DNA of 43,124 bases, taken from the IMG/VR virus record IMGVR_UViG_3300022670_000241, positions 1-43,124 of that record. The stretch is one strand, 5' to 3'. The notes under the pieces are model-generated. The model made no database searches. It was given only the letters and a program-made list of their open reading frames with translations, and had not been told where the DNA came from. The position numbers were made by a program, and so were the translations under genes. This document shows positions 1,402 through 39,258 of the stretch, one piece after another (the stretch's first letter is position 1; every line of letters begins with the position of its first letter). This stretch comes from a virus. Its lineage: Duplodnaviria; Caudoviricetes.

Positions 1402-1423
1402 ATAGGTAACGAAATGGTATTAG

Positions 1424-1608
1424 TGGTGGTGGCAGGGCGTTAATTCCTGCTTATGCCAACCCTTCTGACACAGCGTTATTGCTTCACTATTTCTAGCACC
1501 GCGCGGGTCTTCATTTAAGAATGAGCCTTTCGACTACCGCGGATCATACACAATAACAACCTAGCTTTCGCCTAGCAACCGTGCTTCTACTTTCAGCACC
1601 GCACCACC
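1424..1608 (-). ncRNA. 185-nt tRNA-like structured RNA with expanded anticodon region
   Basis: Acceptor GGTGGTG/CACCACC+A, D-like arm GTGCT-GAAAGTAGA-AGCAC, T-like arm GCAGG-9nt-CCTGC, three GAAA tetraloop hairpins; enclosed by a 24-bp stem (1408-1431 with 1602-1625). Confidence 0.7.
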
Positions 1609-1703
1609 AATAATACCACTCCGTTAAGTCGATTTATATTCCGCATGACCAGACGGCAGTGCTTTCCATTTCGGAAACAACTGCTTGAGACACCATTTAT
1701 TAC

Positions 1704-38455: not shown

Positions 38456-38860
38456 TCATTCCCCCTCCTTTAGTTCGGGATATTCCTCTGCTTCATACCA
38501 TGTTGAGCGCGCTACATTTCTGAACAGAGCGTCAATATCAATAAAATCATTCTCTGGTACTGGAGTGTCATACCTACTAGAAAAACCAAGAGGCGATTCA
38601 TTGCCATTCTTTCTACTATTCCAATCTAAAACCTCTGGGGTCTTGTCTAAAGCCTCCCTCAAAAACTCCTCAATCTCACCAGAATCTTTAACATATTTCA
38701 TTGGTAAGCTTTCCGGCTCAAACCCTTTCGTTGGTGCTAATTTCATTAGTCTGGCGTTCGCACTATCAACGTGTACAGTTAGATGGTAAGGGTGTTGCTG
38801 ACATACCCACCTTGCTAAATTGGCGCATATATCATATATTCCTACTAATCTTCTTGTCAT
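38456..38860 (-). CDS. Hypothetical protein
   Basis: ORF track; SD AGGAGG. Confidence 0.65.
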   Translation of the reverse strand: MTRRLVGIYDICANLARWVCQQHPYHLTVHVDSANARLMKLAPTKGFEPESLPMKYVKDSGEIEEFLREALDKTPEVLDWNSRKNGNESPLGFSSRYDTPVPENDFIDIDALFRNVARSTWYEAEEYPELKEGE

Positions 38861-38904: not shown

Positions 38905-39258
38905 CTATTCCTTATCGACAGCCTCCAGAATCCGCCTTAAATATCCATCTGTTTCCGAATAAATACCAAATACACCACCGGCTTCTGCAATTATAACGGC
39001 GGCTCGAAAGTTTCCACGATACACCGCGACATCAAGGGGTCTATGGTCATTTTTGTCGTGTGCATTGCAATCTATACCAAGACGTATCAATTCTTTAGCC
39101 AGCCGATCATGAGAAGACTCCGCAGCCAGATGTAGAAGCGTAGTGCTGTATTCGCCTTCAATATTTATATTATCCAGCTTCCTCACAAGCCCTATTTGAC
39201 AATCACTAGAAGCAGCTTTTATTTTTGCAAAATCCGCCAACTCTTTTTCTCTATCCAT
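38905..39258 (-). CDS. Ankyrin repeat protein
   Basis: TTLLHLAAESSH...KELIRLGIDCNAHDKNDHRPLDVAVYRGN...IIAEAGG, two ANK repeats. Confidence 0.9.
   Translation of the reverse strand: MDREKELADFAKIKAASSDCQIGLVRKLDNINIEGEYSTTLLHLAAESSHDRLAKELIRLGIDCNAHDKNDHRPLDVAVYRGNFRAAVIIAEAGGVFGIYSETDGYLRRILEAVDKE

Follow-up and report, generated by a model that had tools for sequence, protein, structure and literature searches.

The 43,124-base stretch analysed here (the window) is the whole of virus record IMGVR_UViG_3300022670_000241 and, judging from its genes for a P22-like portal, a terminase, a major head protein, a Sak4-like annealing protein and an antirepressor, it is a tailed phage. On its minus strand, at positions 1408..1625, lies an intergenic element in the same orientation as the genes on either side, a 171-amino-acid (aa) open reading frame (ORF) of no assigned function and a 70-aa Lar-like gene. 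The element has the arm order of a transfer RNA (tRNA), with an insert in place of the anticodon arm. It belongs to a widespread and apparently uncatalogued family of phage RNAs, of which we collected at least 277 distinct members, mostly on phage contigs. That it is a real structured RNA gene with a tRNA-like frame we consider highly probable.

All the helices named in a preliminary description of this locus were found at their places on the minus strand (Table 1). Its 24-base-pair (bp) closing helix was also as described: 1625-1602 pairs with 1431-1408 over 24 positions, with G-U pairs at 1621 and 1619 and one U/C mismatch (1610/1423). The comparison with shuffled sequences supported that description only in part. 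The whole stretch of 218 nucleotides (nt) folded on the minus strand to -79.9 kcal/mol (z -4.77, 0 of 200 shuffles as good; plus strand, z -3.11, 2 of 200 as good), but the 185-nt core alone was weak (z -1.37, 26 of 300 as good) and the 130-nt insert alone folded no better than its shuffles (z +0.39, 185 of 300 as good). Clearly, the folding signal comes mostly from the outer duplex. Mean pair probabilities were 0.96-0.99 in the outer stems and the D- and T-like arms (P2 0.99, P3 0.98), 0.84-0.90 in the two long stems of the insert, and 0.34-0.83 in its small helices (0.34 for TCATT/AATGA). As the window insert has no close relative among the 276 other inserts of the set, its detailed fold stays a prediction. 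The frame, judged by its recurrence with covariation in the 276 other elements, is far beyond chance. In the window, Rfam 15 placed nothing over the element at gathering thresholds or at E up to 10, ARAGORN called no gene over it, and no second copy was found.

Table 1. Parts of the element and adjacent features in the window
Feature	Position	Strand	Remarks
P1 5' arm	1602..1625	-	acceptor-like 7 bp 1608-1602, U1609, mismatch U1610, 15-bp outer extension 1625-1611; from pair list, inverted repeat I1
Linker CG, 2 nt	1600..1601	-	would be equivalent to tRNA positions 8-9
P2 D-like arm	1581..1599	-	5 bp, loop GAAAGUAGA (1594-1586); kissing bases G1590, U1589
Variable insert, 130 nt	1451..1580	-	at anticodon/variable-arm position; predicted multibranch fold; 3' end is conserved A1451
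Degenerate copy of D-like arm 5' half, in insert	1487..1502	-	13/16 identical to 1587-1602; direct repeat D5
P3 T-like arm	1432..1450	-	5 bp, loop AAUUAACGC (1445-1437); kissing bases A1440, C1439
P1 3' arm	1408..1431	-	1431-1425 acceptor-like, A1424, mismatch C1423, extension 1422-1408; CCA not encoded
TATAAA hexamer	1633..1638	-	12-13 nt ahead of outer stem; weak promoter candidate only
Lar-like gene, 70 aa	1091..1303	-	phrog_599, E 2e-8; neighbour only, not part of element

Relatives were collected by means of the two hairpins. The D-like hairpin used as a pattern gave 4 IMG/VR and 83 metagenome stretches; relaxed D-like patterns added 61 viral and 32 bacterial-genome stretches, together with 121 viral stretches, out of about 560, that carry a second loop variant, while T-like hairpin patterns gave 27 stretches and then 121 of about 200. 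Stretches with the exact pattern number roughly 620 in IMG/VR. The finder required 6 of the 7 pairs of the closing stem (P1), counted G-U as a pair and gave one point for an A as the last insert base. With it, the 5' hairpin was followed by a T-like hairpin within 520 nt, with closing pairing to the bases ahead of the linker, in 110 of 132 distinct stretches of the U variant and 107 of 120 of the C variant, as against 0 of 399 on mismatched DNA. The final set consists of 277 distinct elements (209 from IMG/VR, 39 from metagenomes, 22 from GTDB genomes, 6 from cultured phages, and the window), which is a lower bound, since members with loop insertions or odd loops escape the finder; one false parse, L183, was removed by eye from 106 rows. 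The cultured carriers are POI1126, Ssp-JY40, PotUPM1, D14H, Persinger and Orimi01, in whose records no RNA is annotated at the element. In Orimi01 (L221), a 'hypothetical protein' is annotated across it at 1493-1966, which is probably a spurious gene call.

A model (R1) built from 60 compact members, with the window excluded, recovers the window element at 42.4 bits (E 2e-7). Among 34 genomes from one bacterial genus it matches in just 1, a scarcity that fits a phage-borne element. Complete E. coli genomes searched with one compact member gave no match, and plasmids gave short partial matches only. The preliminary description had recognised no described family in this RNA, and the wider searches agree: in Rfam 15 there was no match for the window element, and at 55 relative-bearing loci no family covers an element, tRNA matches lying only beside the elements. 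No description of the family was found in the open full-text literature (subscription papers were outside this search, and the family may sit in a candidate catalogue not covered), and the supplement tables of Fremin et al. 2023 (PMC10690425) gave no match. Some loci depart from the usual arrangement. Two copies lie close together at L030/L031, L154 and L201. At L106, L113, L093, L419, L432 and L435, the T-like arm and closing stem of the family occur with a different D-like arm, and these loci are possible sister subfamilies. At L488 (phage phiAH14a, about 370-620), a tRNA-like body with canonical loops, set in an 18-bp helix, is directly followed by an apparent family variant with a different D-like arm.

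The frame common to the members consists of a closing stem of at least 7 bp, a CG linker, a D-like hairpin (P2, loop GAAAGYAGA), the insert, an A, and a 5-bp T-like hairpin (P3, loop NNUNRCGN). In an alignment of 60 members, 96.5% of the cells pair (pairing percentages here are inflated, as the finder demanded pairing), and two-sided changes, which that demand does not produce, occur at 19 of 21 pairs, including 4 of the 5 pairs of P2 and all 5 of P3. None of 500 shuffles reached the observed value, and alignments slid out of register were 31-46% paired. Covariation among homologues was the check proposed in the preliminary description, and on this alignment all three stems covary. In the 277 members, P1 pairs in 99-100% at bp 1-6, 94% at bp 7, 83% at bp 8, 66% at bp 9 and about half thereafter, so that it often continues to 8-11 bp. 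The linker is CG in 97 of 117 well-parsed elements chosen on the 3' hairpin alone, and the last insert base is A in 267 of 277. The P3 loop has 8 nt in 273 members, and the 9 nt of the window are the sole such case. Its first and last bases covary weakly, as the non-standard pairs A.C, G.A and G.U. The preliminary description had also assigned a discriminator A and looked to an added CCA. Neither is supported: A1424, the base so named, pairs with U1609, position N73 varies in the family (A 104, C 73, U 61, G 39), and CCA is not enriched at any offset, nor is it encoded.

The two hairpin loops vary together as well. Position 6 of the D-like loop and the purine ahead of the invariant C of the T-like loop, neither of which was scored by the finder, were U-A in 107 elements, U-G in 3, C-G in 107 and C-A in none (Fisher p 2e-59, which overstates independence because members are kin). 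In the final set (n=277), the counts were C-G 162, U-A 108, U-G 5, G-C 1, G-G 1 and C-A 0. When elements were selected on the T-like hairpin instead, every one of the 12 parsed elements with A had U, and 76 of the 79 parsed elements with G had C (7 and 19 elements, respectively, were not parsed). Moreover, either state of the pair is found on the common P2, P3 and loop backgrounds, and within at least 7 clusters of related inserts the pair switches, including a change from C-G to G-C between L262 and L354. In the window, the pair is U1589-A1440, next to the invariant G1590-C1439. As the adjacent G and C were fixed by the search patterns, this second pair fits the kiss, but covariation does not show it. 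Of 7 matches from a scan for variants without that G, none had a 3' module that passes the finder; one of them, L484, scored 26.6 bits on R1 and was left out of the set. Taken together, these results support a contact between the D-like and T-like arms through a covarying loop-loop pair, and with it a tRNA-like corner built without TΨC or a D-loop GG. We infer that P1 stacks on P3 (7 + 5 bp) and that an antiparallel kiss of two pairs closes the L-shaped corner, replacing the canonical G18/G19-TΨC contacts.

About 20 near-invariant bases, unpaired or at junctions, together with a pseudoknot-type pair, could also be expected of a ribozyme core that cleaves itself or excises the insert. However, the invariant bases map to the tRNA-like corner, no Rfam ribozyme family matches, and the ends of the insert are not conserved except for the last A, all of which makes a ribozyme very improbable. 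Still less credit can be given to a mobile unit, selfish or acting at the DNA level, or to a tRNA gene in decay. Such an origin would suit the scattered and unrelated gene contexts and the slight excess of flanking direct repeats of at least 7 nt (27 vs 6 of 270, against a cross-genome control not matched in base composition). Against it, the terminal stems covary while their sequence is not kept, G-U exceeds A-C by 63 to 6 in the stems on the element strand (G-U being counted as a pair by the finder), the tertiary pair is maintained, and there is nearly always one copy per locus.

Contrary to the frame, the insert differs from member to member. Inserts are 27-270 nt long (median 94) and fall into 248 clusters among the 277 members, so that the GAAA-capped multibranch domain noticed in the window cannot be taken as a family feature. 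Nevertheless, compared with mononucleotide shuffles, AGGAG is depleted in the inserts (23 vs 52.8 +/- 6.3), GNRA motifs show a mild excess (1385 vs 1235 +/- 29), and there are 13 canonical T-loop hairpins against 0. Because of these biases, the inserts look selected at the RNA level. GGA is not enriched (629 vs 669 +/- 20), and a sponge for CsrA/RsmA-type proteins was therefore dropped. Insert modules are kept across frames with different stems at L048, L107, L135, L371 and L423, and also at L003, L070, L082, L192 and L203. The inserts of L003, L036, L070, L082, L192 and L203 carry a conserved nested module that ends in a canonical T-loop hairpin, as if it were a second tRNA-like body. A second slot is found in the D-like loop, where L374, L395, L406, L424, L433, L475 and L088 have insertions right after the kissing bases.

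Three kinds of context bear on how the RNA is made. First, -10 hexamers are most frequent at 13 nt (16 elements) and 12 nt (13 elements) ahead of the 7-bp stem, where chance would give about 1.5 at each position (p 4e-19); many of them have a visible -35, and transcription would therefore start at the stem. Second, a tRNA lies within 600 nt of 26 of the 277 elements (flanks being shorter than 600 nt at some loci), on the same strand in 25 cases and within 60 nt in 13. The spacers between element and tRNA are like those between tRNAs, several being 2-7 nt; at L265 the order is tRNA-Thr, 4 nt, element, 7 nt, tRNA-Gly. Third, P1 extends to 19-29 bp (two mismatches allowed) in 38 of 277 members, the window included, and to at least 20 bp in 26; a duplex of this length would suit RNase III. 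An own promoter was rejected as a feature of the long-stem class, only 1 of 37 such members having a -10 hexamer 12-13 nt ahead of the outer stem. Together, the promoter, tRNA-array and long-duplex contexts suggest one discrete RNA product, which would be reached by three routes: initiation at the first base of the stem, trimming from tRNA arrays, or cutting of the long closing duplex. The last, probably by RNase III, would be the route of the window element. Release by RNase III, proposed in the preliminary description, is plausible here because the long closing duplex is a real feature of a subclass.

The same contexts could be read as those of a cis-acting processing or stabilising signal in long transcripts (a site for RNase III or RNase P, or a block to exonucleases), with no role for the free RNA. 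The existence of the long-duplex subclass and the intergenic, co-oriented position of the window element would suit such a signal, as would the terminators, which are not enriched downstream of the elements (10 vs 8 of 210), so that transcripts often run on into genes. However, promoters that start exactly at the stem and tRNA-like spacing in arrays fit a gene, and a cut site needs neither a conserved tertiary pair nor an insert of 27-270 nt. We therefore regard a purely cis-acting role as improbable. The neighbouring genes give no common theme. Among 90 downstream ORFs of the first 105 members, 22 matched in a PHROG scan and none was Lar-like, and the link to the Lar-like gene drawn in the preliminary description thus does not extend to the relatives. 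Upstream, 70 of 95 ORFs were scanned, and the 15 with Pfam matches were of mixed kinds, with no shared neighbour. In a single case, L159, an Acb2/Tad1-like anti-defence gene is on one side of the element, and two tRNAs with an RtcB-like ligase gene are on the other. A role as an antisense RNA to the flanks or the window was rejected, as complementarity was no more than in the control.

The reading that we place first, though tentatively, is the scaffold idea of the preliminary description: the element is likely expressed as a discrete small RNA, in which the frame may be a compact chassis that presents a swappable insert to a protein partner. A compact nuclease-resistant frame would protect both ends of the RNA. 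As TΨC, the D-loop GG, discriminator identity and an encoded CCA are lacking, the RNA would be neither charged nor taken into the ribosome. The insert would be the working part and would bind or sequester a host or phage protein, which is the least certain step. The other suggestion made earlier, a decoy for anticodon nucleases, is unlikely because the anticodon loop is just the part that is missing, and the remaining loops are non-canonical.

Several findings weigh against a chassis with cargo. As a set, the inserts are little better folded than their shuffles (median z -0.46; 33 of 105 below -1 and 8 of 105 below -2), that of the window is no better at all, and the shortest (32 nt or less) offer little space for cargo. 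The G-C half of the kiss never varies, and only 46 of 277 elements have a -10 hexamer within the -20 to -12 window. Moreover, 248 insert clusters would imply very many cargo functions, while it is the frame that is conserved. This last point favours another explanation, to which we give somewhat less weight and which we consider rather unlikely: that the frame itself is the ligand, a working L-shaped tRNA mimic bound by a single conserved host factor that recognises the shape of tRNA (a sensor or toxin in defence, or a processing or modifying enzyme), and that the insert is a tolerated slot. In support of that, phages with very different hosts carry a nearly invariant frame and unrelated inserts, the inserts are weakly folded, insertions in the D-like loop after the kissing bases are tolerated as well, and minimal members are about the size of a tRNA. 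However, the surfaces known to be read by tRNA-binding proteins (TΨC loop, G18-G19, anticodon loop, N73, CCA) are absent or variable, some insert modules are conserved between divergent frames, and no partner gene travels with the element.

In its widest form, the chassis reading would mean that an orthogonal tRNA fold, whose re-coded corner would not be read by the tRNA enzymes of the host, is common to phages from several host phyla, and that they use its two cargo slots to display hundreds of aptamer-like domains against host defence or to redirect host proteins. We consider this unlikely; if true, it would be a natural RNA plug-in system in phages. For RNA structure, the family offers a candidate alternative solution to the tRNA elbow, and phages may have in it a platform for manipulating their hosts by means of RNA. 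The unannotated copies in six cultured phages make work on expression, structure and knock-outs directly possible.

Some further features of the window lie close to the element. The degenerate copy of half of the D-like arm within the insert (Table 1) sits 100 nt downstream of the original and is possibly a remnant of a duplication or of a nested frame. The TATAAA hexamer at 1638-1633 was not called by a promoter scan. Right behind the element and ahead of the start of the Lar-like gene, which had no match in Pfam, a second three-way junction is predicted at 1332-1402 on the minus strand (z -0.9, not above shuffles). On the other side there is a strong hairpin at 1783-1811 (1755-1815 has z -3.3). 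On the minus strand an A run comes after it, so that a T run adjoins it on the plus strand; it is terminator-like, yet the scan just mentioned did not call it. A 16-nt direct repeat ahead of the replication gene, in non-coding DNA (726-741 and 926-941, spaced by 200 nt and 94% identical), could represent operator or origin sites. Farther away, the minus-strand ORF at 38456-38860 has a Pfam match (E 5e-22) to Tad5, an inhibitor of type I Thoeris, and adjoins an ankyrin-repeat ORF at 38905-39258. A blastn search of the window region against cultured phages gave no match, and a search for kin of the window phage through a neighbouring resolvase-like gene confirmed none.

Among known RNAs, two candidates were rejected. 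Six loci of the C4 antisense RNA (RF01695) have another layout, the longest complementarity between members and their flanks equals the control, and R1 has no match in two C4 loci; eight matches to Acido-Lenti-1 (RF01687) are two-hairpin repeats without either loop motif. YrlA is a non-decoding Y RNA of bacteria and phages that mimics the D/T corner of tRNA, according to Chen et al. 2014 (PMC4201824). The family has neither the acceptor-like stem-loop that YrlA has between its T and D arms nor an Rfam match to it, and no TROVE domain, as in Ro60, was matched among the window ORFs scanned (58 with PHROGs and 54 with Pfam, of 181) or among 160 flanking ORFs. The large RNAs GOLLD and ROOL are much larger than the members of the family, and neither had an Rfam match in the window or at the 55 relative-bearing loci. 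According to PMC5737381, these two are non-coding RNAs of phages and prophages, of unknown role and often near tRNAs.

Transfer-messenger RNA (tmRNA) has the same topology of ends and a large inner domain. Unlike tmRNA, the family has a D stem in place of a stemless D loop, G3-U70 in only 2 of 277 members (the window has U3-A70), no encoded CCA, no tag reading frame, inserts as short as 27 nt, and no ARAGORN tmRNA call. The resemblance to tRNA (RF00005), especially class II tRNA-Leu, goes further: the arm order, the 7 + 5 bp top helix, the 2-nt linker and a D/T contact are all present, although the contact is made by other bases. However, the loop column counts give no TΨC loop and no G18-G19, the insert folds give no anticodon stem with a 7-nt loop, and a fixed discriminator and an encoded CCA are missing as well. 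With no RF00005 match and no ARAGORN call, the element is thus not a canonical tRNA, nor a tmRNA or YrlA, as the preliminary description had maintained. By eye, the D-like loop looks like a shortened form of the D loop of tRNA-Leu, having one A in place of the UUG or CUG of the T5 tRNA-Leu loop, and descent of the frame from tRNA-Leu would be in line with this.

The closest parallels are stable RNAs of phages T4 and T5. RNAC (species 1 RNA, NC_000866 70908-71046) and RNAD of T4 are, like the family, small phage RNAs that lie in a tRNA cluster and have a T-arm-like 3' end; RNAC is expressed late and its function is unknown, according to PMC9697503. Unlike the family, they have a canonical GGUUCGAAUCC T arm, no GAAAGYAGA hairpin and no R1 match. 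The octamer AGUAGCGU in T4 rnaC was considered as a P3 loop and dropped, since it lies within a longer predicted stem. T5 RNA1 (misc_RNA rna1, AY543070 30501-30644), which GenBank lists, as it does RNA2, as a 'tRNA-like stable RNA with unknown functions', lies in the phage tRNA region and shares with the family the acceptor-like stem, the 2-nt linker, the D arm, an insert that replaces the anticodon arm, the T arm, and the lack of an encoded CCA. Its loops are a D loop of the tRNA-Leu type, GAAUUGGUAGA, and a 7-nt UUCAACU T loop. In contrast, the 5-bp D stem of the family carries the loop GAAAGYAGA, which the covarying pair links to the NNUNRCGN loop of 8 nt, and a search of the T5 region with R1 gave no match at E up to 10. 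As far as layout and loops can tell, T5 RNA1 is the closest known RNA, of the same layout, and the family is not a member of its kind by loop sequence. While T4 RNAC and T5 RNA1 have for decades been unexplained single cases of tRNA-like stable phage RNAs, such an RNA can now be considered as a family defined by covariation.
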